Shown here: piece by piece, positions 14,183 through 60,973 of the stretch
How the letters are laid out: each line of letters starts with the position of its first letter
Numbering within the stretch: position 1 is the stretch's first letter
Assembly (NCBI GenBank): GCA_049522395.1
Contig: JBEKNV010000010.1
Span: 7,918 to 71,917 of the forward strand
Source of the DNA: Methylovirgula sp.
GTDB taxonomy: Bacteria > Pseudomonadota > Alphaproteobacteria > Rhizobiales > Beijerinckiaceae
Direction of reading: 5' to 3'
Length of the DNA stretch: 64,000 nucleotides
The notes under the pieces: generated by a model
Database searches by the model: none
Seen by the model: only the letters and a program-made list of their open reading frames with translations
Told to the model about the DNA's origin: nothing
Translations under genes and position numbers: made by a program

Positions 14183-14269
14183 CGCGAGGCGATCCGCTTG
14201 TCAGACCTTTGCCTTTTTGTTAGACGACACGCCTGCCGATTTGGCCAGTCTTGGCCTTATCGCATCTTC

Positions 14270-14354
14270 GCGGCCATGGCGGAATTGGTAGACGCGCTAG
14301 CTTGAGGTGCTAGTGGGGAGACCCGTGGAGGTTCGAGTCCTCTTGGCCGCACCA
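14270..14354 (+). tRNA. tRNA-Leu (anticodon GAG)
   Basis: Acceptor GCGGCCA/TGGCCGC, anticodon stem CTAGC/GCTAG with loop TTGAGGT, long variable arm, T-loop GGTTCGAGTCC, encoded CCA. Confidence 0.92.
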
Positions 14355-14448
14355 ATGTCATTTTCCTTCGATGAACCGTCGGGGCGGTTCAGCCCTTTCT
14401 GTATTCAGAATCTCTAAGACCAGGAGCGAGGCCCAGCCGAGTGGGGCA

Positions 14449-31720: not shown

Positions 31721-31938
31721 GGGTGCTTGACGCCGCCGAGACGACGGCCCCGCGCGATGTCTCGGTCCCCACCCAACGCTCGCCGCTTACTCCGGCCCGC
31801 GGCCGCCAAGATCAGACCCGCGATCCGCTGTGGGTACGACAGCTTCGATTCGATGCGAATGGGTGATGCTAACCCAAGTGGAGTGGATGAGCGAACAAGC
31901 GCATAGTGCGCCAACACCCAAACACAAGAGTTACAAAT

Positions 31939-32571: not shown

Positions 32572-32587
32572 TCTCGACGGAAGATTG

Positions 32588-32683
32588 ATAGACAAGGTCG
32601 ACAAAGGCGGCCATTTCGCCGCCTGGGAACAGCCGAAGATTTTTACCGACGAGATTCGCGCGGCGTTCAAATCGCTGCGCTGA
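32588..32683 (+). pseudogene. 3' remnant of an alpha/beta-hydrolase (epoxide-hydrolase-like) gene
   Basis: Frame reads ...DKVDKGGHFAAWEQPKIFTDEIRAAFKSLR*, the characteristic C-terminal GGHF..E.P block carrying the catalytic His. No upstream body is present. Confidence 0.6.
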
Positions 32684-32773
32684 TCGAGGGCGTGCCCGAC
32701 GTTTAGATGCATGGGCCCGAGGCCGGCCATTTCGCGATGGGTGAGGTGGCGGATGCGGAGGCGAGTGCGCCAT

Positions 32774-43762: not shown

Positions 43763-44188
43763 TCAATTCTGGCTCGGCTTGTCTTTGACGGATGGCCGCT
43801 TGGATGTCGTGGTAAAATCAGACGAAAAGTCGCGGTCAAAGCTAGGCGTATAAGTGCTGTCATAAGCGGAGACTGCTTTTATCTGTTTATGAAGAATTTG
43901 CTCTTCTTCTTCCTTCGTGAATTTTACCGGAGAGTAACTGCTGACGACTCTGAATGCCCAATCTCGTATTTTGGCGGCATTTTCGTCTTTAGGATCAGCA
44001 CGAAGTATGCCGATGCCAAGCTGAATATATTTGAGTTTCTGTTCTTCGGAGTGACTTTGCCAGTTTATAAACGTGGCGAAAAATCCGCCAACGACCGTTA
44101 TGACGGCGGCGACGATTATCGAGTCGCTGAAAATCGATCGCTTTAATTTTTGCTCAGCGGGCCGGGCGCCGTCGTCGGGGGCATTCAT
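43763..44188 (-). CDS. Hypothetical membrane-anchored protein
   Basis: 141-aa AT-rich ORF with a single TM (IIVAAVITVVGGFFATFI). No recognised motif. Confidence 0.45.
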   Translation of the reverse strand: MNAPDDGARPAEQKLKRSIFSDSIIVAAVITVVGGFFATFINWQSHSEEQKLKYIQLGIGILRADPKDENAAKIRDWAFRVVSSYSPVKFTKEEEEQILHKQIKAVSAYDSTYTPSFDRDFSSDFTTTSKRPSVKDKPSQN

Positions 44189-45426: not shown

Positions 45427-45747
45427 ATGGTGGATGACATTTGCGAGGTCCGCCCGAAAGGGCGTCTCGATAGCGCAAGCGGCCCTGCATTCGAGAAGGA
45501 TCTGCTCGGGCGGATCGAGAGCGGACGGTTGCGCATGCTGCTCAATTTCGGCGAATTGCAATACATCAGCAGCGCCGGGTTGCGGATCGTCCTCCTTGCC
45601 GCGAAGAAGATGAAATCGGCAGGGGGCAAAATGGCGCTCTGTTCGCTTAATCCACAGATTGCCGAAGTGTTCGAGATCAGCGGCTTCAGCAATATTCTTG
45701 ACATCCATCCTTCGCGGGACGCAGCGCTGCTGGTTCTTGCCGACTGA
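45427..45747 (+). CDS. STAS-domain protein (anti-sigma-factor antagonist-like)
   Basis: 106 aa. Motif LQYISSAGLRIVLLAAKK retains the phosphorylatable-Ser position, and AEVFEISGF is also present. Confidence 0.85.
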   Translation: MVDDICEVRPKGRLDSASGPAFEKDLLGRIESGRLRMLLNFGELQYISSAGLRIVLLAAKKMKSAGGKMALCSLNPQIAEVFEISGFSNILDIHPSRDAALLVLAD

Positions 45748-45815
45748 CGTCCGGCGACGCTTGCGCCGACCCACGGTGACACGGAAGCGTCATCTCGGCT
45801 CAATAGCATTGGCCT

Positions 45816-47483
45816 ATGATAAATCTTGATGTCTTGGCGTCGATCCTGGCCGGACTCGGCCTATTTTTCATTGGCATCAAAGGGATCGCGGCAAATCTTG
45901 TTCAATTGGCCGGGCGAAGTCTGAGGCTGTGGGTTGCGCGATCCACCGGCAGCTATCCGATGAGCGCGCTCATCGGCGTCGTCTCGGGAGCGCTGACCCA
46001 AAGTACCAATGCCGTCACCGTGATCTTAATGAGCTTGGTGACAGCCGATCTCATTACGCTCGGCGAGGCGACGCCGATCCTCGTTTGGGCCAATGTCGGC
46101 ACCTCGGCTCTGGTGCTGCTCATCGCCATCGATATTCATCTGTTCGTCCTGGCGATCACGGCGGCAGCGGGCCTCTGTTATTATTTCAATCTCGATCGCT
46201 CGCCGCGCTGGCGTTCCTTGGTCGGAGCCCTGTTTGCTATCAGCCTGCTGTTTCTTGGCCTCGAGCTGATGCGCAGCGGCACGCATGAGCTGCGCGAAAT
46301 CGCCTGGGTTAGCGACGCTTTGCATCTTGCCGCGCGATGGTACGCCTCCGCCTTTGTCATCGGCGTCGTGCTCGCCATTATCGCGCAATCGTCGGCCACC
46401 GTGACGGTGATGGTGATCGCCATGGTGTCGGCCGGGCTGCTCACCTTGGGTCAGTCGACGATGATCGTCTATGGCGCCAGCGTCGGCTCTGGCGTGGGCA
46501 CGTTTCTGATCGCTTCCGGCGTCGGCGGGACCTCGCGACAGCTGCCGATCCTGCAGGCGATCGTTAAAATGCTGGGCATCGTCGTGCTCCTGCCTTTTTT
46601 TATCGTCGAGCACACGTTCCATGTGCCCCTGATCAACCATGCCATTCACGCGCTGACCAGCAATCCAAGCCGGCAGGTCGCCTATGTCTATCTCACCTGC
46701 CAGATCGCAGCCGTCATTGCGCAGCTTATTTTTTCGAAGCTGATCCCGCCTCTGTTGCAGCGCTTGGCGCCGCCCTCGCAAGAGGAGGCGGTTTCCAAGC
46801 CGCGCTATCTTTATCATCAGGCGCTCAGCGAGCCGGAATCCGCTCTTCCTCTCGTCGATCGCGAGCAGGCGCGGGTCTTCAATTTTCTGCCGCTCTATCT
46901 CGGTGTCTCTGACCACCTCGATGAGAGCGAAGTCGTTCCTAAAGAGGGCACGGTACTCGGCGCCGCAACCGCGCTCGATACCGCCATCGGGCGTTTTCTC
47001 AGCGACCTCGCCGATACCTCGCCGAGCCGCGAGCTGCTCGACAAGATTGCCAACCGTCAGGCGCGCAACAGTCTGCTTCAGTCGGTTCACGAATCGCTTG
47101 CCGAACTCGCCGCCGCCATCGCCGTTCCCTTTGAGACGCCGGCGATGCGGTCGCTCAGTGGGAATCTGTCAGAGGGGCTCGCGGGGTTGCTCATGGTGGC
47201 GGCCGATGCGGTGCGCTCCGGCGATCCGGACGAGCTCGCGCTGCTGCGCAAGCTGACGGCCGACCGCGATAGCCTCGTCGACCAATTGCGCAAGCGGGTT
47301 ATCGCCGCCGACAAAGCCCTGTCGGCGCGCGATCAGCACCGGCTCTATACCCTCACCAGCCTGTTCGAGCGGATTGTCTGGATGCTTCGGCGCTACGGCA
47401 GTCTGCTCGCCGTCGACATTGAGAGCGTACAGGCCGCCGAACCGGCTTCTTCGCTGAAAGAAAGCGCCGCCACCCTGTCCTAA
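45816..47483 (+). CDS. Na/Pi-cotransporter-family membrane protein with PhoU-like C-terminal region
   Basis: 555 aa. Duplicated Na_Pi_cotrans-type segments ([25 protein letters not shown]; [23 protein letters not shown]), then a helical soluble C-terminus. Confidence 0.75.
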
Positions 47484-47572
47484 AAGGTGGGATCGGCGTA
47501 GGGTTGGCGCAAAGGCTGCAGGCCCGCTCCGATGGGGACGACGGTTTCGCGCAGCGCGGCGGCTCAAGGGAG

Positions 47573-49141
47573 ATGGGGGAAATGCTGCTTAACCACTGGA
47601 AATTAGGCCCAAAAATCTATCTGGTCGTTGTCCTCCTTGCATTGGTGACGGCAGCCATCGGCGCGCTCGGCGTCGACGCGATCCAAACCTACAATCAGAA
47701 CGTCAATGCCATCAGCCGTGCGTCACGCAACGCCGTGATGGGCGAGAAGATCATGGGCCTGATCGATGCGGTCGGCATGGATTCGCACAGCGTGACCACA
47801 TCCGCCACCAATGCCGACGCCGAAAAATTCGCGCCGCAGATCGTGCAGAATTTGCAGCGGATCGGGGACCTTCGGCAACAATGGGTCGGGCTCGCAGAGC
47901 CCGAAGATAAGACGACGATGGACCGCATCAGCGCGGAGATCGACGAATTCATCCAATCCGGAACCGAATTGGTGCGCCTGGCGCGTGAAGGCACCATTGC
48001 AGATGCCCGGGCCTATCGCGACAGCGATGTCAACCGTGCTAGCCGGGAGCGTCTGCGCGACGATGTCGCCGCCCTTGCAGACTCGAACAGTGCGCGCATC
48101 GATCGGTTGAGCGGCGAAGTCGCGGCTTACTACAACACCCATGTCTGGCTTTTGGGGCTCGTCACGCTCTTTGTCGTGTTCGGCGGTATCTTTCTCGCGA
48201 TTCTCTTTGTTCGCCGGCTTCTGACCCAGCCGTTGGGCCAAGTTAACAACGCGATGAAAAAGCTGGCAGCTGGCGACACCACGGCGCCTGTGCCCGCGGA
48301 TCGCGGCGATGAGATCGGCGATATGGCGAAAGCCATGCGCTCCTTTCAACGCCAGGCGGTCGCGGCCGATAAGCTCACGGTTCAAGTGACGGAAGACGTG
48401 GGCCGCATCGCGCTCGCGGCGAGCCAGGCGAGCAGCGCAGTGAGCCAGGTCTCCGATGGTTCGAACGTCCAATTGAGTTCGTTGAAGAAGACCGCGGGCG
48501 CCGTCAACCAGAGTACGCTTGCCATTTCCGATGTCGCGAAGAACACACATCTCGCCAGCGAACAGGCCGGCGCTGCCGCGGTCCTCGTCACGGACGGCAT
48601 GAACCGGATGACGGACATGGTCGCGATCGTCAACGCAATCGCGGAGAGCAGCAACAAGGTCCGTTACATCGCAGACGCGATTTCGCGGATTGCGAGTCAG
48701 ACGAACATGCTGTCGCTCAATGCGGCAATCGAAGCCGCACGCGCCGGCGAGCATGGCAAAGGCTTCGCGGTCGTCGCCGAAGAAGTGCGCAAGCTCGCGG
48801 AGAATTCCGCTTCGCTTGCGCAGGAAATTGCCGATCTCGTCAGCAATTCGACATCGCAAGCCGGGCAGGGCGTCGCGATGGCGGATGAGGTGAGCGACAA
48901 GATGCGCCGCATTTCCGATACGGTTCGTCAAAGCGACAAGCTGATGGGGTCCATTGCGACCGCCATGGCGGAGCAACAAGCCGCGATTTCGGAAATCAAT
49001 GCGAGCCTGAATGAGCTGACGCGCATCGGCCAGTCCAATGCGACGGCGGCGGAGGAAATCACCGCCACCATGCTCGATCTCAGCAAGCTCGCCGAACATT
49101 CGCGTGGCGAACTCAACAAATTCGCCGAAATCTGGACCTGA
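47573..49141 (+). CDS. Methyl-accepting chemotaxis protein (two TM segments, helical periplasmic domain, HAMP)
   Basis: TM1, an about 165-aa helical periplasmic region, TM2, HAMP ([16 protein letters not shown]...EIGDMAKAM). Signalling tip is [31 protein letters not shown]. Confidence 0.92.
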
Positions 49142-49159
49142 CCAGGCCCGAACCCACCC

Positions 49160-50137
49160 ATGGCGCACCCGATCGACACGACCCTCGCGCTTCTGCATGA
49201 CGTGATGACAGCACATCGGCAGGCGCTGACGCGCGGGCCGCAGACCAATGCGCCGGCCGCGATTTTTCTGCCGCGCGGCAAGCGGGCCGATCTCGTGTTG
49301 CGACTGTTGGCGGGCGTCGAAAAACGGGTGGGGATCGAGGTGGCGCAGGCCCCCGCCGAAAAACTGCTGCGCGGCCTTTCCGCGGTCGACACCGGCGAGA
49401 TCGAAAGCTGGGTTTCGGAACTCGAGATCCTGCCGACGACGCATCCGCAATGGCTGGCGCTCATCGAAAGCCTCACGGTTCACGAAACCTATGTGATGCG
49501 CGATCCGGCGCAGCTCGAACATTTCGCGGCGCAATTGCCGAGCCTGATCGCTGAGGCGGAGACATCGCATCGCCTGAATTTCTGGTCCGTCGGTTGCGCG
49601 ACGGGCGAGGAAGCCTATTCGATCGCCGCTCTCGTCTTTGACGCCATGCTGGCGGCGGGCCGCGCTGCGGCGACAGAGACCGCTATGACCCTCGTGCCGC
49701 CTTGGCGGATCGAGGTTCTGGGATCGGATGTCTCTCGCTCCGTCCTCGATCAGGCGCGCGCCGGCCTTTACGAGACCGGACCCTTGTCGTCATTCCGCGC
49801 CGAGTCGGCGCTTGTGCTCCGTCATTTTCCGATGACGCGCGACAAGGGCAAGGCACGCGCGGCGGCGCCGCATCTCAAAGCGGTCACCGCCTTCTCACCG
49901 TTCAACTTGGTCGACAGCAGCCTGCCGGACCAAAAATTCGACGCCGTCTTCTGCCGCAATGTCCTGATCTATTTCAGCGGCCGCGCCCGCCGGATCGCGC
50001 TCGACAAGCTCATGCATGCCGTTCGCCCGGGCGGCTATCTGGTTCTGGGCCCGACGGATACACTGAGCGACACGGCGCTCTTCGACGCCGTGTGGGGACA
50101 GGATGCCGTCATCTATCGTCGGAGGCAGAATGGCTGA
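49160..50137 (+). CDS. cheR: Chemotaxis protein methyltransferase CheR
   Basis: 325 aa with FWSVGCATGEEAYS SAM motif and FCRNVLIYF. Confidence 0.9.
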   Translation: MAHPIDTTLALLHDVMTAHRQALTRGPQTNAPAAIFLPRGKRADLVLRLLAGVEKRVGIEVAQAPAEKLLRGLSAVDTGEIESWVSELEILPTTHPQWLALIESLTVHETYVMRDPAQLEHFAAQLPSLIAEAETSHRLNFWSVGCATGEEAYSIAALVFDAMLAAGRAAATETAMTLVPPWRIEVLGSDVSRSVLDQARAGLYETGPLSSFRAESALVLRHFPMTRDKGKARAAAPHLKAVTAFSPFNLVDSSLPDQKFDAVFCRNVLIYFSGRARRIALDKLMHAVRPGGYLVLGPTDTLSDTALFDAVWGQDAVIYRRRQNG

Positions 50138-51458
50138 GGCCCTACGCTCCGATCCCGCTGGCCGCTCCACGGCCCTGCTGTTTCAACTTGACAAGAAATG
50201 TTGGGCACTGGATGCGGCTTTTGTCGCGCGCGTTCTGCCCAATCAGCCGGCCCGGCCGGCGGGTTTTCTTCCCTTGCAGTTTTCCGGTGTCGTCGCCTAT
50301 GCGGGCGAAGTGTTGCCGCTCCTCGATCTACGCACACGGCTCAATTTGCCCGAGAGCGAAAGTCCCGCTGGCGAATTGCTCGTCCTTACTTTCGGCGCGC
50401 AAAGCTATGCGCTGCGTGTGGAGCGTGTCATTCAGATCGTCGTGCGCAATGAAGGGCAAGACCTCATCTGGCGCGGACAAACCGTCACCTTCATCGATGT
50501 TGCGGCAGTGCTATTGGACGCGCTTGAAGAGACCGCATCGGCCCCTCCTCAAGCACCGACGCGAAATCGGGCGATAGAGCCGATTCATCCGACCGAGATG
50601 GCGGAACTGCCGGGACTGGATGAAATCCGCGCCGCGACGGCGGCGAGCCTCGTGGTCGAGACGGCCTCCGGCCGTGAACGCCTGCCGCGTTACAGTGTCG
50701 TCGAGCTATGTGAGGATTTGCCGAGGGTCGCAGTTCCCGATCCGCGACTGCTCTTTCAGGGAGCCGCGTTTTATCGCGATCAGCTTCTGCCGATCGTCTC
50801 GCTTGACCGTTTGTTGGGACGAACGGGCCAGGAGCCGTCGGCGGACAAGGTTTTCGTCATCGTCGATGTCGCAGGTCGGCTGTGCGCGATTTCAGTCAAA
50901 AGCGTTGTCGGCATGTCGAATGAGCCGGTGTCCAACATCGATCTGCGCGCGCTCCTGCTTGAACATCTCCCCGAAGGGGCGGAGCGGCTTGCGATGCAAC
51001 AGCAGCGTCCCGCTGAGACACCGGCGGAAGAGGGCACGCGCTTTCTTGTCACCGAGGCGGCGGGGCGGCCGTGCGGGTTCAGCCTCGACTCCGTCATTCA
51101 TATCCATGCCGCAAGCGCGGTGATCCGCGCGCCGAGAACGCAGGGCGCGGCCCCGATCGGCGTTGCGGCGATCGCGGGACGCGTCATGCCTGTCCTCGAT
51201 CTTCCCGACAGCCTGGGGCTCGGACAGGGAGCCACGCGCCAGCAATTCATCGAATTTGCGTCGCCTGACGAGGGCAATTTCGCCGTCGCCGTGGACCGCG
51301 TTGTCGGCATCTCTTCGATCGCGCCGAGCGCGCTGCTGCCGGCGCCGCGCGGCAGCAACATCAGCGCAGTCGTCTCGCAAGGGGACGCGTCGCTTCTCTG
51401 GATCATCGATGCTGTGTTGCTCGCGCAGAGCCTGCAGGGGGGTGCCCATGTCGGCTGA
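50130..51458 (+). CDS. cheW: Scaffold protein with three tandem CheW-like domains
   Basis: Start ATGGCTGA overlaps the cheR stop, after GGAGG. Three repeats follow the CheW pattern (FxL...ALxxxxVxxV ... G..LPxxDL ... VDxV). Confidence 0.8.
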   Translation: MAEALRSDPAGRSTALLFQLDKKCWALDAAFVARVLPNQPARPAGFLPLQFSGVVAYAGEVLPLLDLRTRLNLPESESPAGELLVLTFGAQSYALRVERVIQIVVRNEGQDLIWRGQTVTFIDVAAVLLDALEETASAPPQAPTRNRAIEPIHPTEMAELPGLDEIRAATAASLVVETASGRERLPRYSVVELCEDLPRVAVPDPRLLFQGAAFYRDQLLPIVSLDRLLGRTGQEPSADKVFVIVDVAGRLCAISVKSVVGMSNEPVSNIDLRALLLEHLPEGAERLAMQQQRPAETPAEEGTRFLVTEAAGRPCGFSLDSVIHIHAASAVIRAPRTQGAAPIGVAAIAGRVMPVLDLPDSLGLGQGATRQQFIEFASPDEGNFAVAVDRVVGISSIAPSALLPAPRGSNISAVVSQGDASLLWIIDAVLLAQSLQGGAHVG

Positions 51459-52545
51459 TGCGAAGCACACCGATCTCGACATGCCGGTCGCGCCAATCCG
51501 CGTGCTCGTCGTCGACGATCAGAGTTTTATGCGCATCGCGCTTCGACAAATGTTGGAGGCGGAAGGCGACATCCGCGTGGTGGGCGAAGCGCGCAACGGG
51601 ATCGAAGCCGTGGCTATGGCACGCGAGCTGAAGCCCGACGCGATTACCCTCGATGTCGAAATGCCGGAAATGGATGGGCTTCATGCTTGCGAAGAAATCA
51701 TGCGCGATCCCTCGCCACGTCCGGCGATCATCATGGTGAGCGCCCATACGCAAGTGGGAGCCGAGGCGGCCGTGCAGGCGCTGCGTCTCGGCGCGGTCGA
51801 TTTCGTCTCGAAGTCATCGGCCTTCGCCAAGACCGATCTTGCCCATATCGACACCGAGCTTCGCCCGAAATTGCGCGCCTGGGCCAAGCGGCGCACGGTG
51901 GCCTCGCCGAGCGGCGGCTCGGGAAAGGCAGCGAAGCCATCGCGCCATTGGCGATCCGATCTCATTGTGATCGGCGCATCCACAGGCGGACCGCAGGCCT
52001 TGACGAAATTGCTCACCACGATGGGAAAGATCCACACGCCCATCGTCATTGCGCAGCATATGCCGGAATTTTTCACCGCGAGCCTCGCGCAGATGCTGGC
52101 GCAGGATACGAAGACCGATGTGCGGGAAGGCGAACATCGCGGCGTTCTCGGCCCCTCGAGCGTCACGCTCGTTCCCGGCGCACGCGATGGAATCATCGGC
52201 TTGCATCATTCCGGCGGTTATGAGCTGCGCCTGGTCAAGATCGACGCTCATGTTCATCCTTCCGCCGATGCCCTGTTCGAATCCGCGGCGTTGCTCAGCC
52301 GGACGCCCGTCGGTGTGATCCTGACCGGCATGGGCGAAGACGGCGCCAAGGGCGCTGCGGCCTTGCGGCGAAAAGATGTGCCGGTTCTCGTGCAAAGCCC
52401 GGAGAGCTGCATCGTCGCCGGCATGCCGCAGGCGGCCTGCGCTGCGGCGCCCGGATGCGAGGCGCTCAGCATTGAAGAAATTGCGTACCGTCTCAGTGTG
52501 TGGGGCGCGGAGGATTTGAACGCCGCGGGAGCGGCAAGCCCATGA
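51448..52545 (+). CDS. cheB: Protein-glutamate methylesterase CheB
   Basis: Receiver domain (VLVVDDQSFMR...TLDVEMPEMDG) plus esterase domain (GASTGGPQAL). Overlaps the cheW stop by 11 nt. Confidence 0.92.
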   Translation: MSADAKHTDLDMPVAPIRVLVVDDQSFMRIALRQMLEAEGDIRVVGEARNGIEAVAMARELKPDAITLDVEMPEMDGLHACEEIMRDPSPRPAIIMVSAHTQVGAEAAVQALRLGAVDFVSKSSAFAKTDLAHIDTELRPKLRAWAKRRTVASPSGGSGKAAKPSRHWRSDLIVIGASTGGPQALTKLLTTMGKIHTPIVIAQHMPEFFTASLAQMLAQDTKTDVREGEHRGVLGPSSVTLVPGARDGIIGLHHSGGYELRLVKIDAHVHPSADALFESAALLSRTPVGVILTGMGEDGAKGAAALRRKDVPVLVQSPESCIVAGMPQAACAAAPGCEALSIEEIAYRLSVWGAEDLNAAGAASP

Positions 52546-52581
52546 GCGCGCGTTTTCCATCACTCCCTCGATCAGCGGAGC

Positions 52582-55377
52582 ATGTTTTGCCGCATGGCTT
52601 CTGAACTTGACGCCTTATGGAATGAATTCGCGGCGGAGACCGAGGAACAGCTCGATGCTCTGGAGCGGCTTTTGTCGGAGCGGCCGGCTGAAGGCTGGAG
52701 CCGCGATTCGATTTCCGCTCTGTTTCGCTATTTCCATTCGCTGAAGGGCACATTTCTGGCGATGGGCTTCGCCAATGTCGAAGCCGTGGCGCATCGCTGC
52801 GAAGATGTGTTGAGCCTCGTCCGCGAAGGCAAATCGCCCCTCGATCCTCCGCTTGTGCAGACGATTCTGCGCGCCGTCGATCGGCTCAAGGGCATGCGCG
52901 AAGACGTGATCGATACCCATAAAGACGCCAACCCCGCGAAGGACATTCTCGCCGATCTCGAAGCGCACGGGGCGCATCGCTCGGACGAACCCAAAGCGGC
53001 GCCGGCGCCGACCCACGCCGCCCTGCCGCTCGCCGAAGATCCGGAAATGCTGACGATCTACGCCGAGCTTCTGGAACAGCGTCTGCCCGAGCTTTGCGGC
53101 GCGCTGACGAGCGATCCGCAGGCGCGGGCGGCGGCCAAGGATACGGCCGATACGCTCGCCTATGGCGCCGAGATGATGGGCTTTGAGGCGCTCGCAGGCA
53201 CGTTGCAGGGCTTTGCCGAGCTGTCGGGAACGGCCGCGACCGAGGAGGAACGCGACGCGATCATCGCGCGGCTCGGCGAATTGCGCGACCAGATCAAGAT
53301 CATTGAGGAGGTGACGGGCGGGAGCGCCGGCGCGGCGGCGCTCACAAAGGCAATCGCGACGTCGCTTGCCCACGATTATACGGAGAGCATCAACCGTCTT
53401 GCCGCCGCTTTGGCGAACCCTCAGGAGCCGGCGTCTATCGTCGCGGCCGCTCAGACGGCGCGGTCGCTTGCGTCCTGCCTCGGCTTCGACGAAAGCACGC
53501 GCTTGCTGCTGCTGATCGAGGAGAGATTCCGGGGCTCAGAGTCACTCGACCCCTCGCAGGCTGCGCAATTCGCGGCGCTCGCGGTCGAAGCGCTGGAGAT
53601 GCTGGGATCGGCCGCGCGCTCGGAGCAGGATGTTTCAGCTCAAGCGAGTGCCGGTCTTGCCGCCCGCTTCGTGCAAAGTTTTCGGGCACCGGCTGTTGCC
53701 GATATCGCGCTCGCGACGATCGAACAACGGCTGCGGCCGGAAATGCTCGCCACTTTGTCGAGTGAGCAAAGGAGCAAGCTCGAGCAAGCGCTCTCCGAGG
53801 GCCGGCGGCCCTATGAAGTCCTTCTCGAACTCGAAGGCCATCGCGAGACGGCCGCCGACATCATCGCGTGGCTTTCGACGTCGGTCGAGACGATTACCAG
53901 CCGAACGGTTACGCGCGAGGGCGTCAATTGCTTCGAGTTTCTGATCCTCTCGGACCATGCCGTCGAATGGGTTACGGGCCAGCTCGCGGCGCTCGATCCG
54001 GAGCGCCTCTGCTTGCGCGGCATCACCGATCTCAACAGAGGCGTCGAGACGGCGGCGAGCGAGCCCACCGGCGGCCAATCCGTGCGCGCGCCGCTCATCC
54101 GCGTCCGCAGCGAGACGATCGACGAGCTCATGGCCGAAATCGGCGACATGCGCAGCCATCTCGCGCGCCTCGCCGATATTTTGCAGCAGGGCCGCATCGC
54201 CAAGGCTGTTGAGGCCGGAAGGCGCATTGGGACGCACGCCATCGCGCGCGATCCGCAGTTGCAAGAACAGCTCGACGCGATGGAGGAAGATCTACGCGAG
54301 CTGCGCGATCTGGAACAAGCGTTGGAAGGGACGCATCGCCGCGTTTGGACGGCGGGATTGCAGCTGCGTGTCGTTCCCGTCGATGGGCTTTTCGGGCGCC
54401 TGTCGCGCGCGGCGCGCGATGTGGCCGAGAAACTCGACAAAGACATCGATGTCGTGATCGAGGGCCGCGAGGTGAGGATCGACAAGAGCATGGTCGACGG
54501 GTTGATTGATCCGCTGATGCATATGGTCCGCAACGCCGTGGACCATGGCCTTGAATCGCGCGAGCGGCGGATCACGCAGGGCAAATCCGCGCGCGGCCGG
54601 CTCAGCATTTCCGCATATGAGCGCGGCAATCATATTGACATTGTGATTGCCGACGACGGCCGCGGCCTCGACCGCACGAGGATTCTCGCCAAGGCCATCG
54701 ACCTCGGCATTCTTGCGCCGGAACAGGCGGACCAGATCGCCGACAGCGAAGTGACGGCGCTCATCTTTCACCCCGGGTTCTCGACCGCCGATGCGGTCAC
54801 GGAAATTTCCGGACGCGGCGTCGGCCTCGATGTCGTGGCCGCGACCCTGCATCGGCTCGGCGGCACGATCGACGTGCAAAGCACCTTTGGCTCAGGGACG
54901 ACCTTCAGCCTGAAGTTGCCGCTGTCCGCCTCGCTGTTGCGCGTGCTTCTCGTCGAAGTGGAGGGGCAAACCTTTGCTCTGCCGGAGCGCCAAGTCGTCA
55001 ATGTCCTTGAGATCGGCCGGCAGATGGTTGAGACGGCGGGCGACGGGCGGGTCGTGCTTCACCGAGGCGCCGCGGTTCCGGTTCATGCGCTCGCCGCCGC
55101 GCTCGGCTTCCCGACGACGCCGAACGATTCCGATCTTGTGCGCCTGGTGATCGTTTCGACCGGAACCGAAACGATAGGTTTGCAGGTTGATCGCATTCTG
55201 CGCTTTCAGGATCTCTTCTTGAAAGAGCTGCATCCGATCCTGGCGGCATCGCCCCTCATCGGCGGCGCCTCGGTCCTGGGCGACGGACGGCCAGTTCTGG
55301 TTATCGAAGCGCGCGGCTTTGCGACGCTCGGCTTTCCCGACGCGAGCGACAAGCCCAAGGCGGAGGCAGACTCATGA
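52582..55377 (+). CDS. cheA: Chemotaxis histidine kinase CheA with extended N-terminal region
   Basis: Hpt motif FRYFHSLKGT, dimerisation region, HATPase boxes (HMVRNAVDHG, DDGRGLD, GRGVGLDVV, GSGTTFSLKLP) and a C-terminal CheW-like domain. Alternative start at 52594. Confidence 0.92.
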   Translation: MFCRMASELDALWNEFAAETEEQLDALERLLSERPAEGWSRDSISALFRYFHSLKGTFLAMGFANVEAVAHRCEDVLSLVREGKSPLDPPLVQTILRAVDRLKGMREDVIDTHKDANPAKDILADLEAHGAHRSDEPKAAPAPTHAALPLAEDPEMLTIYAELLEQRLPELCGALTSDPQARAAAKDTADTLAYGAEMMGFEALAGTLQGFAELSGTAATEEERDAIIARLGELRDQIKIIEEVTGGSAGAAALTKAIATSLAHDYTESINRLAAALANPQEPASIVAAAQTARSLASCLGFDESTRLLLLIEERFRGSESLDPSQAAQFAALAVEALEMLGSAARSEQDVSAQASAGLAARFVQSFRAPAVADIALATIEQRLRPEMLATLSSEQRSKLEQALSEGRRPYEVLLELEGHRETAADIIAWLSTSVETITSRTVTREGVNCFEFLILSDHAVEWVTGQLAALDPERLCLRGITDLNRGVETAASEPTGGQSVRAPLIRVRSETIDELMAEIGDMRSHLARLADILQQGRIAKAVEAGRRIGTHAIARDPQLQEQLDAMEEDLRELRDLEQALEGTHRRVWTAGLQLRVVPVDGLFGRLSRAARDVAEKLDKDIDVVIEGREVRIDKSMVDGLIDPLMHMVRNAVDHGLESRERRITQGKSARGRLSISAYERGNHIDIVIADDGRGLDRTRILAKAIDLGILAPEQADQIADSEVTALIFHPGFSTADAVTEISGRGVGLDVVAATLHRLGGTIDVQSTFGSGTTFSLKLPLSASLLRVLLVEVEGQTFALPERQVVNVLEIGRQMVETAGDGRVVLHRGAAVPVHALAAALGFPTTPNDSDLVRLVIVSTGTETIGLQVDRILRFQDLFLKELHPILAASPLIGGASVLGDGRPVLVIEARGFATLGFPDASDKPKAEADS

Positions 55378-55742
55378 TGGCGAGCGAGCGCTATCTGTTC
55401 TGTTATGCGGGGGACACTGCCTTTCTGGTGCGCGCCCATTTCCTGCGGCACATCTGGACGCGATCCACGCCGACCCCCGATGAATTCCAAAGGGTCGAAG
55501 CGGTCGACCTTCGCCGACGTCAGGGCCAAGCGGCCCGTGACGAAGGCGTTGCGCTCGGGTTGGACTTGCCCGGCGGGGCAGACGTCTTGCTCGTCGATCG
55601 CATCGGCGGTTTCTCTGACGTGAGCGAAGACGAGTTTCTCGCCCTGCCTTCCGTCTTCGAATTTGCTCGTCAGACGTTCGACGCGGCTTGCCGGCGCGCT
55701 ATCGGAGGCGTTTATCCCCTGAGATTGCGGTTGGGAGCCTGA
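55374..55742 (+). CDS. Minimal CheW-like protein
   Basis: ATGA overlap with the cheA stop. 122 aa following the CheW pattern (RYLFCYAGDTAFLVRAHFLRHI...VEAVDLRRR...VLLVDRIGGFSDVSEDEF). Confidence 0.55.
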   Translation: MMASERYLFCYAGDTAFLVRAHFLRHIWTRSTPTPDEFQRVEAVDLRRRQGQAARDEGVALGLDLPGGADVLLVDRIGGFSDVSEDEFLALPSVFEFARQTFDAACRRAIGGVYPLRLRLGA

Positions 55743-55745
55743 CGC

Positions 55746-56732
55746 TTACGCGCGCTCGGGACCGTTGTAGCGGATCACCAGCAGCGTCACATCATCCGCC
55801 ATGGGCGCGAGCGCCATGTAAGCATCGACCTGCGAGATGATGTGACCGAAAAGTTCGGTCGGATGGGCGCTTGCTTGCTTCTTGAACAAAGCGATAAGCC
55901 GTTCCTCGCCGAAGAGATTGCCGCCGGCATCCGTCGCCTCGGTGACGCCATCGCTGAAACAGACGAGCAGCTCTCCTGGTGCCAGCTGACAGCGCTGCGT
56001 TGGGTAAATGAAGTCTTCCATTATGCCGAGCGCCATGCCGCCGAGGCCGGTCAGCGTATCGATCGCCCCCGAATTGCGCAGAATATAAGGCGGGTTGTGG
56101 CCGGCGTTGCCGTAGTGGAGTTCGCCCGTGTTGGTGTTGAGGATGCCGTAAAAGGCGGTGGTGAACATCAAGGTCGGGTTGTCCATGCAGAGCATGGCAT
56201 TGACGGTGCGCAGACAGCCGCCGGGATCATCGAGTTTTTGTGATGCGGCGCGCAGCAGGGTGCGTGTCAGCGTGATGAAGATCGCGGCCGGCAGGCCTTT
56301 GCCGGCGGCGTCGGCGACGACAAAGCCGAGCCGATCCGGGGCGAGGAGAAAAAAGTCATAGAGGTCGCCGCCGACCTCCTTCGCCGTCACCATGCCGGCG
56401 TGAAGATCGAAATCGCGGCGATCGGGAAAGGGCGGAAAATCCTGCGGCAGACCGGCGAGCTGCAGGTCGGTGGCGAAATCCCATTCCGCCTGTTCGGCAG
56501 CGGCGCGGTCGCGAGTGCGCAATATATCAAGCACGAGTTCAAGCTGGAAGCTGCGTTCCTTGAGATTGATTTCGTGGTCGCCGGCGCGCCGATGCAGCCG
56601 CTCCGTGAGCAAGGCAAGCCCCACCACCGGGTCGGCATTTGATTCAAATTCACGCAACGCCGCGGAGCGTTCGCTCTCGGGCAACAGCTTGATCAGCCCG
56701 TGGCCGATGGGGCGTAGACGCTCGTCGCTCAT
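55746..56732 (-). CDS. PP2C-family (SpoIIE/RsbU-like) serine phosphatase
   Basis: Start MSDERLRPIG at 56732. Motifs GGDLYDFF, VVADAAGKG, FSDGVTEA and DDVTLLV. Confidence 0.88.
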   Translation of the reverse strand: MSDERLRPIGHGLIKLLPESERSAALREFESNADPVVGLALLTERLHRRAGDHEINLKERSFQLELVLDILRTRDRAAAEQAEWDFATDLQLAGLPQDFPPFPDRRDFDLHAGMVTAKEVGGDLYDFFLLAPDRLGFVVADAAGKGLPAAIFITLTRTLLRAASQKLDDPGGCLRTVNAMLCMDNPTLMFTTAFYGILNTNTGELHYGNAGHNPPYILRNSGAIDTLTGLGGMALGIMEDFIYPTQRCQLAPGELLVCFSDGVTEATDAGGNLFGEERLIALFKKQASAHPTELFGHIISQVDAYMALAPMADDVTLLVIRYNGPERA

Positions 56733-56764
56733 GCCGTCAGACCCTTGATTGCCACCCGACACGA

Positions 56765-57223
56765 TCAATGTCCCTCGCTGCGGCTCTGAGCGCGCTTTGC
56801 CATGGCGGCGACGTCGAGCGGCGGAAGGCCGATGGCGGCGCGCACGACCTTCAGAATCTCGTGACCGCATTTGGCTTTCAAATCGAGACTGATCGCGCCG
56901 GACGGCTTGGCGATCACATCGAAGGCGCCGAGGCGGCGCGCCTCTAGCGCGGCGGGCGAACCGAGTTGCGCGACGGAGGACAAGATCACGACTTTCGTTT
57001 TACTCGTGAGCTTGAGACGTTTCAGGACATTCAACCCGTCAAGGCGGGGCATTTCGATATCGAGCAGAACGACCTCGGGCTTCAGCTCTTTTTCCTTTTC
57101 GAGAGCGACCTGTCCGTCTTCGGCTTCGCCTGCGATTTCCAGATCCTCGTCCACCACCAAAATCTGTTTGACGATATTCCGCATGAAGCCGGAATCGTCG
57201 ACGATGAGAACCCGATGTACCAT
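56765..57223 (-). CDS. Stand-alone response-regulator receiver, CheB-N-terminal type
   Basis: 152 aa. VLIVDDSGFMRNIVKQIL...PEVVLLDIEMPRLDG...AFDVIAKP resembles the CheB receiver plus linker. No methylesterase domain. Confidence 0.85.
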   Translation of the reverse strand: MVHRVLIVDDSGFMRNIVKQILVVDEDLEIAGEAEDGQVALEKEKELKPEVVLLDIEMPRLDGLNVLKRLKLTSKTKVVILSSVAQLGSPAALEARRLGAFDVIAKPSGAISLDLKAKCGHEILKVVRAAIGLPPLDVAAMAKRAQSRSEGH

Positions 57224-57234
57224 TGGCTCTGTTC

Positions 57235-57666
57235 CTAACTGGCCGGTGCGGCCGGCACCTTCTTAATCATCCTGAGATGATTGCGCCCGTCCACGCGGGA
57301 ATATTCCACCTTATCCATCACCGTGCGAATGAAATGGATGCCGAGGCCGCCGATGTCGCGGTCCTCGACCGATTTCGCGGTGTCAGGCGCCGGCCGCGCA
57401 AGCGGATTGAAGGCGACGCCGTCATCGATGATCTCGGCCGCCAGCGCATCCCCGTCAAGCTCGATCCGGGCGGTGATCCTGTGCCGTTCACCATCTGAAA
57501 ACCCATAGGAGATGATGTTCGTCAAGAATTCATCGAAGGCAAGGGTCAAGTGAAAGATCGCTGAGGCTGGCAGATGATGTTTTTCGCCGAACGCCTCGAT
57601 GCGCGCGGTCAGCCCGGCGATCTCGGCCACGTCGTTGTCGATTTCGGCTAGGAGTTGATCGCCCAC
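57235..57666 (-). CDS. RsbW/SpoIIAB-like anti-sigma-factor serine kinase (HATPase_c_2)
   Basis: 143 aa with N-box FDEFLTNIISYG, IDDGVAFNP and DIGGLGIHFIR. Confidence 0.85.
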   Translation of the reverse strand: MGDQLLAEIDNDVAEIAGLTARIEAFGEKHHLPASAIFHLTLAFDEFLTNIISYGFSDGERHRITARIELDGDALAAEIIDDGVAFNPLARPAPDTAKSVEDRDIGGLGIHFIRTVMDKVEYSRVDGRNHLRMIKKVPAAPAS

Positions 57667-57848
57667 AAGTCGCGCCTTACCGCAGCCTGCGGCCTTGCAC
57701 CGGAACTCTCCGCCGCCTCGGGACCGAACGGCTCGCCGCCAGAATTGCCGAATCCTTGTGCCCTGTCCACTTGGTCAAATCCAGTGGCCTAAGCTTAGTT
57801 CGGCAAGCCTTCTGTGGCGCATCGGAAGACGGAAAGGATAACTTCTTT

Positions 57849-57878
57849 TTGGCCAACGCCTTCTCCAAATGTTATAAA
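57849..57878 (+). promoter_or_regulatory. Candidate sigma70-type promoter for the STAS/RsbW-like pair
   Basis: TTGGCC (57849-57854), N18, TATAAA (57873-57878), about 70 nt upstream of ATG 57949. Pattern match only. Confidence 0.3.
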
Positions 57879-57948
57879 AACGTCACAGGGATGGGAGTAC
57901 TGGATTGCGGCGGACTGCACAGGACACGCCGGGTCTTAGGGGGATTCC

Positions 57949-58284
57949 ATGGACATGATGGTCGACGAACTCGACGGCGGCGTCACCACTGTCGCGCTGC
58001 GGGGACGGTTCGATACGCAAGGCGCCGAATCCGTCGATTTGCGCTTCAGCGTGATCGCCGGGTCCAAATCCGCCGTGCTGGTCGATCTGTCCGATGTCGA
58101 TTTCCTGGCTTCCCTTGGCATCCGCGTCCTGCTCAGCAGCGCCAAAGCCATTCAGCGCAAAGGCGGCAAACTGGTCATCGTTGCGCCGGAAGGCAATGTG
58201 CTGATGGTGCTGAAAACCGCCGGCATGGAAAATCTGATCCCTATCTTTCCAGAGCGCGACGCCGCTATGGCCGTGTTCGGCTGA
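57949..58284 (+). CDS. STAS-domain anti-sigma-factor antagonist
   Basis: 111 aa. VDLSDVDFLASLGIRVLLSSAK retains the conserved Ser, and NVLMVLKTAGM is also present. Confidence 0.88.
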   Translation: MDMMVDELDGGVTTVALRGRFDTQGAESVDLRFSVIAGSKSAVLVDLSDVDFLASLGIRVLLSSAKAIQRKGGKLVIVAPEGNVLMVLKTAGMENLIPIFPERDAAMAVFG

Positions 58285-58298
58285 GCGCGGGCCGGCCG

Positions 58299-58763
58299 AT
58301 GGCGGCGCAAGGCACATCGCCTCATCCGCGCCGTCTCGAACTCTTCTGCGATTTTGCCGAACTCGAGCGGCTCCATGACTTCGTTCAGAAGATCGGCGAG
58401 GCCGAGAGTCTCGACACCGATCAAATCTTCGCGCTCGATCTCTGCCTCGAAGAAGCCGTCACCAACATCATCATGCACGCCGGATTGAAGGATCGCGCCG
58501 GCACGCTCATTTCCGTGACGCTTCTTTCGGGCGCGCCGGAACTGGCCTTCTGTCTCGAAGACGAGGGCCGGCCCTTCGATCCGACCAAGGTCGCTGAGCG
58601 GCCCGCGCCACACTCACTGGAAGAGGCGCCGATTGGCGGCGTCGGGCTGCCGCTCATGCGCAAGCTGACGACCGCCATGCGCTATGAGCGCGACGGCAAT
58701 CGCAATCGCCTCTTCCTTCAATTCGGGCCGGGCGGGGCGGTCCCCGATCCCACTAATGTTTGA
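58299..58763 (+). CDS. Second RsbW/SpoIIAB-like anti-sigma-factor serine kinase
   Basis: 154 aa with N-box LEEAVTNIIMHAG, LEDEGRPFDP and PIGGVGLPLMRKL. Confidence 0.85.
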   Translation: MAAQGTSPHPRRLELFCDFAELERLHDFVQKIGEAESLDTDQIFALDLCLEEAVTNIIMHAGLKDRAGTLISVTLLSGAPELAFCLEDEGRPFDPTKVAERPAPHSLEEAPIGGVGLPLMRKLTTAMRYERDGNRNRLFLQFGPGGAVPDPTNV

Positions 58764-60522
58764 AGTGCAGAGTGAGCACGGTCGCGCCGTGTTCTTGGGT
58801 GCTGCGGGCGCGATCGGCTTGCCGGCGGACGAGAAAGCCTGACAGACGGCGCGGTCCTTCGGCGGTCTCAAGCAAATCTTCCTGCGATGGCGGCCATTCG
58901 GGCAGGTCTAGCGCAATCCCGTCGTAAGAGAGCTTCGCGTCGATATCGAATTCGTCAAAGCTGACGGCGAGCGCAATCGGCCCTTTGACCTGGCAGAATT
59001 CCACAATCGCCTCGACAGCCTGCTGGACGACGAATTCAAGCCGCGAGACGACATCGCGCCGCGCGCCCCAAGTGCCGGCGGCGCGCTCGATGAAATTCAC
59101 GATCTCGCCCGGCTGCACATTCGTCGAATCGACGCTCATGACCACACTGCGCCTGATGCCGAGGCGAAAGACGAGATTGAGCGAAAGAGCGACGAGAGTC
59201 GCGAGCACGAGCGGCGAGGTGACGAGGGGCCTCGCCCATTGCGGCACGTCGGTGAAGGCGGAGGGGAAGACCGAGACCATGAAAAACGCCATCATGCCGG
59301 CGCCGATTACCAAAGTGCGGCGCGGATCCAACACGCGGGTCGAGATGATCTGAATGCCGCTGATCATGATGAAGACGGCGGTGAAGACGAGCGCGGCTGC
59401 CATCACCGGCGGCGGCATAATGGTGAGAAAGCCGACGAGCGTCGGTTGAAAGGCGCAAAGCGCGAGAATGGGTGCAATGACAAAGGCGATGCGGCGGCTC
59501 GCGACGCCCGTCGCGGCGACAAGGCCGACATTGGCGGTCGAGATCGTCAGACCGTAGGTGCCGAAGAGGCCGGCGACTATATTGGCGATGCCGTCGCCGA
59601 AAATGCCGCCGCTGATCGAATGCGGATCGGGCCGCACCCAATCCGCGTCATTGAGGCGCTGATAGGTCGTGACCACCGCCGTCGAACTCATCGCCGCCGC
59701 GAGCGCGGTCACGGCAAAGGGGATCACCATGGAGCCATCGAAGGTCCAATGGACATTGGTGAAGGAGGGCAGGGCGAGGAGCGGTTGCGCCAAAACCTTA
59801 TGAACGTCAGCCGGCGTGATGTAGCCCGTCGGACCTGAGAGCGCGTAGCCGACCAGCATGCCGACGAGGATGCAGAAAAGACGCAGCCGGCCTTTGTTCC
59901 AAATGTTGAGCGCAATCATCGTCCCGATGCTGAGGCCGGCGACGAGCGCACCGCGTCCCGAGATTGCCTTGCCGCCGGCTTCGTCCAGCATGATGTGCAA
60001 GGCCGCGAGGCCGATGATGACGCCGATCAGAAACACGACCATGCCGGCGGTTTCCGGCGGAATGAAAACGCGCAGACGCGACCAGACACGCGACAGAAGC
60101 ACTTCGACAAAACCGGCGAAGAGCGTCATGCCCCAGACGAGCGGCAGGCCGCCGATTTTCACCGCGAGCAGCGAGGGGCCGAGAAAGACGCCGGTGAAGA
60201 TCGCCGGCGCGAGAAAGCGGCTGCCGACAGGGCCACGCGGAATGGCTTGCAGAAGAACAGCGACCGCCATCACCAGCATCGCGCGCCGCAGGATGCTGCC
60301 GATGTCTTCCGGCGATGTGCCGGCCGCGCGCGCGATGATCAGAGGATAAATCATGAAGATCGCGACGACGCCGACATGCTGAATGGCGCTGACGATGGTA
60401 ATCGCGGTCGGCGGGATCTCATCGCTGCCGTAGACGAGGGCCGCCGGCTTGCGGCGCGGACGGTGGCTCTGCCCGGGCTCGCTCGGCGCAAAGAGACTTT
60501 TCGCGAATGAAAGTTTGCCCAT
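58753..60522 (-). CDS. NCS2/NAT-family (xanthine/uracil-type) permease fused to a C-terminal degenerate RsbW-like domain
   Basis: Start MGKLSFAKS at 60522. QHVGVV (TM1 QH motif) and NAT-signature-like TANVGLVAATGVASRR. The last about 130 aa align by eye, block for block, with the two RsbW-like proteins but lack the N-box Asn and the G2 box. Confidence 0.75.
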   Translation of the reverse strand: MGKLSFAKSLFAPSEPGQSHRPRRKPAALVYGSDEIPPTAITIVSAIQHVGVVAIFMIYPLIIARAAGTSPEDIGSILRRAMLVMAVAVLLQAIPRGPVGSRFLAPAIFTGVFLGPSLLAVKIGGLPLVWGMTLFAGFVEVLLSRVWSRLRVFIPPETAGMVVFLIGVIIGLAALHIMLDEAGGKAISGRGALVAGLSIGTMIALNIWNKGRLRLFCILVGMLVGYALSGPTGYITPADVHKVLAQPLLALPSFTNVHWTFDGSMVIPFAVTALAAAMSSTAVVTTYQRLNDADWVRPDPHSISGGIFGDGIANIVAGLFGTYGLTISTANVGLVAATGVASRRIAFVIAPILALCAFQPTLVGFLTIMPPPVMAAALVFTAVFIMISGIQIISTRVLDPRRTLVIGAGMMAFFMVSVFPSAFTDVPQWARPLVTSPLVLATLVALSLNLVFRLGIRRSVVMSVDSTNVQPGEIVNFIERAAGTWGARRDVVSRLEFVVQQAVEAIVEFCQVKGPIALAVSFDEFDIDAKLSYDGIALDLPEWPPSQEDLLETAEGPRRLSGFLVRRQADRARSTQEHGATVLTLHFKH

Positions 60523-60897: not shown

Positions 60898-60973
60898 GCC
60901 CAGGTAGCTCAGTTGGTAGAGCATGCGACTGAAAATCGCAGTGTCGGTGGTTCGATTCCGCCCCTGGGCACCA
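60898..60973 (+). tRNA. tRNA-Phe (anticodon GAA)
   Basis: Acceptor GCCCAGG/CCTGGGC, D-arm GCTCAGTTGGTAGAGC, anticodon loop CTGAAAA, T-loop GGTTCGATTCC, encoded CCA. Confidence 0.95.

Follow-up and report, generated by a model that had tools for sequence, protein, structure and literature searches.

A Methylovirgula chemosensory cluster joined to a split partner switch with transporters as candidate targets, one of them an NCS2 permease with a predicted RsbW-fold pseudokinase domain

A ~15-kb signalling and transport island at positions 45427-60522 of a 64-kb stretch of DNA from Methylovirgula (Beijerinckiaceae, Hyphomicrobiales), referred to here as the window, combines a Che-like chemosensory operon with the separate genes of a partner switch (STAS proteins, RsbW-type kinases, a receiver and a PP2C phosphatase) and with the genes of two transporters, a Na/Pi-cotransporter-family protein (NaPi) and an NCS2/SLC23-type permease. 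We find that the probable target of this switch is transport and not a sigma factor. The mechanism as a whole, in which a Che-like pathway drives a split partner switch dedicated to transporters, is in our estimation about evenly poised between right and wrong. Its most specific version is somewhat more tentative still: free STAS protein would dock on a dead RsbW fold carried by the SLC23/NCS2 permease and would act on the NaPi-PhoU transporter, with serine phosphorylation gating transport and the Che array driving the process in Methylovirgula, Methyloferula and Aliidongia. On the plus strand the island reads STAS1, Na_Pi_cotrans, MCP, CheR, triple CheW, CheB, CheA and a 122-residue open reading frame (ORF); minus-strand genes for RsbW1, the receiver and PP2C converge on this operon, and beyond RsbW1 lie plus-strand STAS2 and RsbW2, followed by the convergent minus-strand permease gene. 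Pfam recovers this content and order just as an initial annotation, made from the letters alone, had described them, save that the last ORF of the che operon, which it named a mini-CheW, is weakly supported. Permease and CheA match proteins of a Methylovirgula sp. metagenome-assembled genome at NCBI with 100% identity.

The case for a transport target is the stronger because one of the transporters carries a predicted pseudokinase copy of the switch's own kinase. The permease gene (58753-60522, minus strand) encodes 589 residues, of which the first 454 (59161-60522) form the NCS2/SLC23-type body (Pfam Xan_ur_permease, E = 5e-34, residues 83-453). Its matches to the NCBIfam models pbuX, ncs2 and uraA fall far below their cut-offs (198 versus 414 bits for pbuX), and NCBIfam scores give no equivalence to PbuX, UraA or RutG. 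The remaining 135 residues (58756-59160, minus strand) match no Pfam family even at E ≤ 10. The initial annotation had called this C-terminal domain RsbW-like, and as far as the fold is concerned profile and structure comparisons agree. A profile of 121 tail homologues aligns at full length, over 129 columns, with a profile of 41 RsbW kinases (hhalign probability 97.3%, E = 2e-11) and yields no alignment with STAS; the AlphaFold2 model of the tail has a mean pLDDT of 94.8, and the 18 best Foldseek matches of this model in the PDB are all SpoIIAB, RsbW or anti-sigma-F (UsfX-type) structures, with TM-scores of 0.55-0.71. The kinase motifs, by contrast, did not survive: the tail lacks the N-box asparagine (VEAI for VTNI) and the G2 box (RRLS for GGLG), and because these losses are held family-wide the domain is best described as an RsbW-fold pseudokinase and not as a functional RsbW kinase. 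Judged from its profile and model, the permease C-terminus is a degenerate GHKL/Bergerat domain of the RsbW type that is predicted to be catalytically dead. The family defined by this tail comprises 718 clusters at 50% identity, its full-length members measure 543-616 residues with the domain at the C-terminal end, and the tail, with its invariant positions, is conserved from phylum to phylum. In a Xanthobacteraceae metagenome-assembled genome (MAG; L001, 7768-13453), two tandem permeases of this family lie right after purL and near purS/purQ, without switch genes, a neighbourhood which hints that the substrate of the family is purine-related.

Outside the Che clade, both transporter families repeatedly share operons with genes for PP2C, RsbW and STAS. 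Such operons were seen in Alpha- and Gammaproteobacteria, Desulfobacterota, Aminicenantes and Firmicutes and, for a divergent permease, in Nitrospirota. This independent, Che-less recurrence of both subfamilies across several phyla argues strongly, at the level of gene neighbourhood, for the idea of the initial annotation that the transporters are partners of the switch. Tight co-directional PP2C-RsbW-STAS-NCS2 operons with one to four permease genes occur in five loci (L151, L154, L160, L162 and L166), and in L162, where the genes are separated by gaps of 3-17 nucleotides (nt), the ORFs are PP2C, RsbW, STAS and NCS2 only. Three of these loci (L154, L160 and L166, all JGI metagenome contigs) have three or four tandem NCS2-pseudokinase paralogues after a single RsbW-STAS pair, which suggests one switch for several permeases. 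NCS2 genes also stand beside PP2C, RsbW and STAS in an Aminicenantes contig (L016), in Pelotomaculum (L031) and in a deltaproteobacterium (L047), are flanked by RsbW and STAS in the alphaproteobacterial contig L004, and lie 3-5 kb from STAS and SpoIIE genes on a Thiodictyon plasmid (L175). In three Nitrospirales loci (L072, L077 and L083, ~6400-10800), an NCS2-like permease with 24-25% identity sits beside RsbW, STAS and REC-PP2C genes. This permease ends in a C-terminus that aligns with the RsbW profile (hhalign probability 90%) and not with the alphaproteobacterial tail profile, and that may represent an independent fusion or a very old one. Of the 29 metagenome NCS2-tail loci in which 800 nt or more could be read to either side, 9 (31%) lie no further than 1.5 kb from a gene for STAS, RsbW or PP2C. 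By a rough estimate, one or two dozen such genes are present among the thousands in a genome, so that ~1-2% would be expected by chance.

The switch of the window comprises two STAS proteins and two kinases, a duplication that was noted at the outset and that Pfam and alignment bear out. STAS1, a 106-residue single-domain protein of the anti-sigma-antagonist type (45427-45747, plus strand; Pfam STAS, E = 3e-17; NCBIfam ant_ant_sig, E = 3e-21), and STAS2, of 111 residues (57949-58284, plus strand; Pfam STAS, E = 1e-16), both retain a phosphorylatable serine that aligns with S58 of SpoIIAA and S56 of RsbV. Orthologues of STAS1 (67-76% identity) head all eight of the other Che-switch clusters described below, and homologues (68-72%) flank NCS2 genes in the Che-less loci L004, L107 and L169. 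RsbW1 (57235-57666, minus strand; Pfam HATPase_c_2, E = 5e-26) and RsbW2 (58299-58763, plus strand; Pfam HATPase_c_2, E = 6e-21) are RsbW/SpoIIAB-type serine kinases whose N, G1 and G2 boxes are intact in the alignment. No Sigma70/ECF domain that could mark a sigma-factor client was found in the window, in the Pfam lists of related Che loci or in the Che-less loci L169, L170 and L172, and Pfam scans of all sizeable ORFs of the 64-kb window likewise detected no flagellar, pilus, GGDEF, EAL or HD-GYP domain, in agreement with the initial reading that sigma, flagellar, pilus and cyclic-di-GMP genes are absent.

These kinases bear on a different account of the island, in which RsbW1 and RsbW2, like CrsR with RpoS, sequester a sigma factor or other regulator whose gene lies elsewhere, the transporters are co-expressed or belong to the regulon, and the permease tail is a relic. 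The retention of all kinase and anti-sigma motifs in both proteins fits this account, as do the many NCS2-tail genes that have no switch neighbours, the restriction of our view to 64 kb of the genome, and the fact that the closest studied systems target sigma or anti-sigma factors (PMC9855816, PMC6482189). We nonetheless consider a distant client unlikely. The minimal operons recur without any other client candidate, and the conservation of the tail across phyla with invariant positions argues that it is no decaying relic. Moreover, one alphaproteobacterial switch that has been studied, RbaV/RbaW/RbaY of Rhodobacter capsulatus, is of the RsbV/RsbW/RsbY type, as in the window, and there no cognate sigma factor was found and the STAS protein was proposed to be the effective regulator (PMC3999984). 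The Rba system differs from that of the window in that it has no chemosensory input and no reported link to a transporter, and its output is the expression of a gene-transfer agent.

The second transporter is more constantly associated with the switch. NaPi (45816-47483, plus strand) is a Na/Pi-cotransporter-family membrane protein with two Pfam Na_Pi_cotrans repeats (E = 4e-39), and it scores above the cut-off of the NCBIfam subfamily model Na_Pi_symport (96 versus 50 bits). Its C-terminal region (residues ~318-555) is predicted by AlphaFold2 to form a six-helix cytoplasmic domain (pLDDT 89), for which the ten best Foldseek matches in the PDB are all PhoU or PhoU-like (TM-scores 0.44-0.59, E = 9e-3 to 0.1). 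The Pfam PhoU family gives no match to this tail even at E ≤ 10, and its sequence profile finds nothing significant in the PDB; a PhoU-like nature is thus suggested by the model. An RsbW- or STAS-like identity was considered and rejected, hhalign returning probabilities below 1% for both. The subfamily is small (321 matches at E ≤ 1e-3, with 8000 candidates scored), and a tblastn search of plasmids gave no match at E ≤ 1e-30. A partner switch is present in all four sampled contexts of its genes: L171, which is an Aliidongia Che cluster; L169, where NaPi, RsbW, STAS2-like, NCS2 and STAS1-like genes are contained within 5 kb without Che genes; L170 (Ectothiorhodospiraceae), with the order RsbW-STAS-x-x-NaPi-dCache~PP2C; and L172 (Stellaceae), with REC~PP2C, RsbW, a hybrid kinase, REC, STAS and NaPi. 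Two further contexts, L041 and L124, also contain a switch, and L124 has the order NaPi-REC~PP2C-RsbW-STAS-large ORF with receiver-like segments-REC, convergent on an NCS2 gene.

A PhoU-like tail could also be read in the opposite sense. The transporters would then sense the flux of their substrates (phosphate and a nucleobase-like solute), the PhoU-like tail and the pseudokinase would capture or release STAS or RsbW, and the switch would report nutrient status to the chemoreceptor array or to gene expression. This reverse flow predicts the same gene associations as the model in which the switch controls the transporters, and sequence and gene neighbourhood fit either direction of signal flow between array and transport. 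PhoU-fold domains are classical signalling adaptors between the Pst transporter and PhoR, and in the window STAS1 and NaPi head the che operon. STAS genes within Che gene orders have been noted in Campylobacterota, and a STAS protein acting on a chemoreceptor was proposed in the same comparative study (PMC9239204). Against this, the minimal PP2C-RsbW-STAS-NCS2 operon of L162 encodes no target but the permease, and the phosphatases already have inputs in the form of receivers, Cache domains and CheA, so that a second sensory entry is less needed. On balance we regard reverse flow as a serious rival of low probability, and control of the transporters by the switch remains our preferred direction.

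How the chemosensory genes would reach such a switch is suggested by the stand-alone receiver and by PP2C, which, as first described, are encoded together with RsbW1 by three separate ORFs with stops between them; the same split is found in L005-L007, L085-L087 and L171. The 152-residue receiver (56765-57223, minus strand; Pfam Response_reg, E = 9e-23) shows the DD, D55, S/T and K residues in its sequence. Its designation as CheB-type was apt: its best NCBIfam match is the CheB N-terminus (E = 6e-36), and it shares 39% identity with the receiver domain of the CheB encoded in the cluster. Orthologues (80-88%) occur in all of the Che clusters that have a partner switch, and a 60% homologue lies within the che operon of a Stellaceae locus (L088) discussed below. 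On these grounds we presume the receiver to be the CheY-equivalent output of the array, no CheY being present in the cluster. PP2C (55746-56732, minus strand; Pfam SpoIIE, E = 4e-52), for which ATG 56732 is the likely start, is a SpoIIE-family serine phosphatase with an N-terminal, ~130-residue helical linker region that has no Pfam match at E ≤ 10. Its best NCBIfam match is RssB_Pseudo, over positions 107-392 of 394, with the N-terminus aligned to the RssB linker, and its relatives are fused REC-PP2C proteins of 391 (L154), 419 (L124) and 406 (L172) residues. By sequence comparison, the window PP2C is homologous to the linker and PP2C part of such fused regulators.

The Che set is complete for CheA (Hpt, HATPase_c and CheW-like domains), CheW, MCP and the adaptation enzymes CheR and CheB. 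The MCP, a transmembrane chemoreceptor (47504-49141, plus strand), has MCPsignal, HAMP and 4HB_MCP_1 domains (Pfam, E = 3e-37, 1e-12 and 5e-6), and an alternative ATG at 47573 is perhaps its true start. It is followed on the same strand by the CheR methyltransferase (49160-50137; Pfam CheR, E = 4e-39), a scaffold protein with three CheW domains (50130-51458; Pfam CheW in three stretches, E = 9e-38), CheB with receiver and methylesterase domains (51448-52545; Pfam CheB_methylest, E = 6e-45; Response_reg, E = 4e-26) and a CheA-type kinase with two Hpt domains, HATPase_c and a CheW-like domain by Pfam (52582-55377). The junction overlaps listed by the initial annotation are exact: the triple-CheW start ATG at 50130 overlaps the CheR TGA (ending at 50137) by 8 nt, the CheB start ATG at 51448 overlaps the triple-CheW TGA (ending at 51458) by 11 nt, and the small ORF after cheA is coupled to it through an ATGA at 55374-55377. 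Pfam finds no receiver domain in CheA and no match to the dimerisation domain H-kinase_dim at E ≤ 0.01, although the latter may be present in divergent form; H-kinase_dim is likewise missing from the precomputed Pfam annotation of CheA homologues, and the NCBIfam CheA models align to the C-terminal half of the protein. The CheA family is very small, with ~45 full-length relatives of at least 39% identity among the word-prefiltered candidates scored from a collection of 5.8 billion proteins. Their named sources are Methylovirgula, Methyloferula, Aliidongia and Stellaceae, and beyond these come ChpA-like and CheA-REC proteins, which cover only about one third of the query.

The 122-residue product of the last ORF of the operon (55374-55742, plus strand) has no Pfam match even at E ≤ 10 and no NCBIfam match, and aligns with the third CheW domain at an hhalign probability of 29% (E = 6e-4) with an internal segment missing. 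The ORF itself is conserved, with homologues after cheA in L005-L007, L085 and L086 (Methylovirgula and Methyloferula) and, in L088, a 130-residue ORF at the corresponding place; the Aliidongia clusters yielded no equivalent. Thus the gene called mini-CheW stands as a conserved ORF, and its product may be a truncated CheW-like protein.

To find relatives of the cluster, we scanned the GTDB species genomes with PP2C and then used every cluster protein as a tblastn query; others emerged from the contexts of CheA. The block of NaPi, STAS1 and che genes opposite PP2C-REC-RsbW recurs in all eight of the other clusters examined, in Methylovirgula, Methyloferula and Aliidongia, which answers the initial call for a check of neighbourhood conservation and places the arrangement far beyond chance. 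The alphaproteobacterial MAGs L005-L007 all show complete synteny. Methyloferula stellata (L085) possesses every gene, STAS2-RsbW2 included, and Methylovirgula ligni (L086) those as far as RsbW1. The two Aliidongia MAGs (L087 and L171, Rhodospirillales) contain NaPi, STAS1, the che genes, PP2C-REC-RsbW and STAS2, with RsbW2 also present in L087. Gene calls had suggested that NaPi is missing from Aliidongia; this was rejected, since tblastn places it at 3544-5106 of L087 and in L171. Conservation thus spans two orders, Hyphomicrobiales and Rhodospirillales, and two cultured strains, Methyloferula stellata (GCA_000385335.1) and Methylovirgula ligni, carry the Che-switch-NaPi cluster.

The description of the island as bracketed by two transporters does not extend to its relatives as a conserved trait: NaPi is present in 8/8 other clusters and NCS2 is adjacent in 0/8. 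No NCS2 match was found past the switch genes in L005-L007, L085-L087 or L171, the flank in L171 amounting to a few hundred bases only, and we rejected NCS2 adjacency as a conserved part of the Che island. Two metagenome fragments do show the proximity seen in the window. One, from Methylovirgula (L091), has RsbW2/STAS2/RsbW1 of such a cluster with NCS2 4.5 kb away, and the other, of 2.4 kb (L096), has NCS2 beside RsbW2/STAS2. This variation of NCS2 adjacency inside the Che clade, together with the narrowness of that clade, in which synteny could partly reflect common descent, would suit the view that che, switch and transporter genes are adjacent by chance or shared ancestry and have no functional wiring. 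We hold this to be highly improbable, because the block is held across Hyphomicrobiales and Rhodospirillales, transporters and switch genes are independently adjacent in Alpha- and Gammaproteobacteria, Desulfobacterota, Nitrospirota, Aminicenantes and Firmicutes, and the Che operon of Stellaceae loses switch, STAS and NaPi together.

This last case (L088; ENA ERZ26871208 contig_131739, 4451-14578) retains MCP-CheR-3xCheW-CheB-CheA and the small ORF, with a CheA that is 42% identical to that of the window, and has a PAS-guanylate/adenylate-cyclase gene after the small ORF in place of PP2C, RsbW, STAS and NaPi. With the receiver homologue placed within its che operon and no switch present, L088 suggests that the receiver is the output of the Che pathway and that the output module is exchangeable. 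Likewise, the joint absence of switch, NaPi and STAS indicates that NaPi and STAS travel with the switch and not with the che genes. L088 thus appears, from its gene content, to represent a swap of the output module to cyclic-nucleotide signalling.

In the mechanism that we favour, the chemoreceptor would control CheA, and phosphorylated CheA would pass its phosphate to the stand-alone receiver and, for adaptation, to CheB. The receiver would switch PP2C via its N-terminal linker, as in the fused REC-PP2C relatives, and PP2C and the RsbW kinases would set the phosphorylation state of STAS1 and STAS2. Unphosphorylated STAS would bind either the true kinases or the permease pseudokinase, and its docking on the latter would alter permease activity or oligomeric state; action on the NaPi protein would perhaps proceed via the PhoU-like tail or an RsbW kinase. 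Inputs to transporter-linked switches vary among loci, from REC~PP2C with or without a histidine kinase and Cache~PP2C to a full Che system with a separate receiver, which implies that the Che array is one of several interchangeable inputs.

Several points weigh against this proposal. The client of RsbW1 and RsbW2, which are intact and of the anti-sigma type, could be the product of a gene outside the island. The tail of NaPi is similar to neither STAS nor RsbW and offers no obvious point of contact with the switch, and the sample of NaPi contexts is small (the four sampled plus L041 and L124). As for the permease, NCS2 adjoins the Che cluster in 0/8 of the other clusters, one close relative has its NCS2 gene elsewhere on the chromosome without a nearby switch gene, and, where the flanks of NCS2-tail genes could be read, 55%-70% of these genes lack a partner-switch neighbour.

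The components have clear counterparts in studied systems. A SpoIIE-type PP2C, a HATPase_c_2 kinase and a STAS protein with a conserved serine are shared with RsbU/RsbV/RsbW and SpoIIE/SpoIIAA/SpoIIAB of Bacillus, and the proposed control of PP2C by a receiver resembles RsbK-RsbY of B. cereus. Unlike the Bacillus switches, that of the window has no sigma gene in its operon or within the 64 kb, and it has an extra, apparently dead RsbW fold fused to a permease. Like the Wsp-type pathways with alternative cellular functions, the island has a full MCP/CheW/CheR/CheB/CheA set alongside a non-flagellar output; Wsp has a receiver-GGDEF output, whereas here a single-domain receiver is proposed to act on a serine phosphatase. 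The closest parallels are CrsR/CrsA, encoded in the che1 locus (F7 array) of Shewanella oneidensis and not linked to Che3, its chemotaxis system, as the initial annotation had stated (PMC9855816), and HptB-HsbR-HsbA of Pseudomonas, in which the STAS protein HsbA binds HsbR, FlgM or the cyclase HsbD depending on its phosphorylation state (PMC6482189). As in the window, a chemosensory or phosphorelay input is joined to a receiver, PP2C, an RsbW-type kinase and a STAS protein. In CrsR and HsbR, however, receiver, PP2C and kinase are fused, whereas in the window they are three genes, a split that is kept in the 8 other clusters; the clients there are RpoS, FlgM and HsbD, whereas in the window neither a sigma nor an anti-sigma factor is encoded nearby and the switch is constantly accompanied by transporters. 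The window moreover has duplicate kinases and STAS proteins, and its CheA belongs to a different and very small lineage. The binding of FlgM and HsbD by HsbA nevertheless provides a precedent for STAS proteins with non-kinase partners (PMC6482189).

For the transporter side, the nearest comparison is SLC26/SulP, which has the 7+7 inverted-repeat fold common to SLC23/NCS2 and carries a fused C-terminal STAS regulatory domain, SLC23 being described as having no such domain (PMC6497670). SLC26 thus carries STAS itself, whereas the NCS2 permease of the window carries the fold of a STAS-binding partner, and the STAS proteins are free and phosphorylatable; association would therefore be reversible, unlike that of the fused STAS of SLC26. 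In full-text literature other than subscription-only papers, we came across no report of NCS2 permeases with an RsbW-like domain and none that links genes for STAS, RsbW or PP2C to NCS2 or NaPi transporters. The system of the window can be seen as a variation on known Che pathways with non-motility output and on partner switches, with the putative transporter-docked pseudokinase as its most original element.

Beyond the island, every sizeable ORF in the remaining 45 kb was translated and scanned with Pfam, and only housekeeping genes were found. A 141-residue ORF (43763-44188, minus strand) between der and panE gives the sole flagellum-related hint, a match to FliL that stays below threshold (E = 0.007, 17 bits versus a cut-off of 24.6) and is probably not significant. 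A tRNA-Phe gene lies just past the permease at 60898-60973. Megablast of the 16-kb region against the PLSDB plasmids matched only a tRNA and an MCP fragment, indicating that the region is no known plasmid island. In Methylovirgula ligni (L086, 17328-19442), a phage-type integrase and AlpA lie ~2 kb past RsbW1, so that the edge of the island differs between genomes, which may point to mobility of its right-hand part. A low-GC stretch at 31900-34110 (0.50 versus ~0.61) contains a 444-residue GmrSD/DUF262-like gene (32774-34108, minus strand) and a 221-residue ORF with no Pfam match at E ≤ 1e-5, and is probably a small, horizontally acquired defence island. Finally, at 10255-12802 a ComEC-like gene (DUF4131 and Competence domains) seems to stop early, at 11826, which could reflect a frameshift or an assembly error, and a spurious-looking, arginine-rich antisense ORF spans 11732-12802.

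Partner switches are textbook regulators of sigma factors, and a few are known to act elsewhere, for example on a diguanylate cyclase, FlgM or type III secretion. If the proposed mechanism is true, partner-switch logic would extend to the post-translational control of solute uptake, forming a new class of output that would work reversibly and in trans, as the mirror image of the STAS domain fused to SLC26, and SLC23/NCS2 transporters would gain a regulatory domain that they are described as lacking. It would also provide a function for a Che-like pathway without CheY and without flagellar, pilus or cyclic-di-GMP output, in which a chemoreceptor array with methylation-based adaptation would tune nutrient uptake, not motility or transcription.

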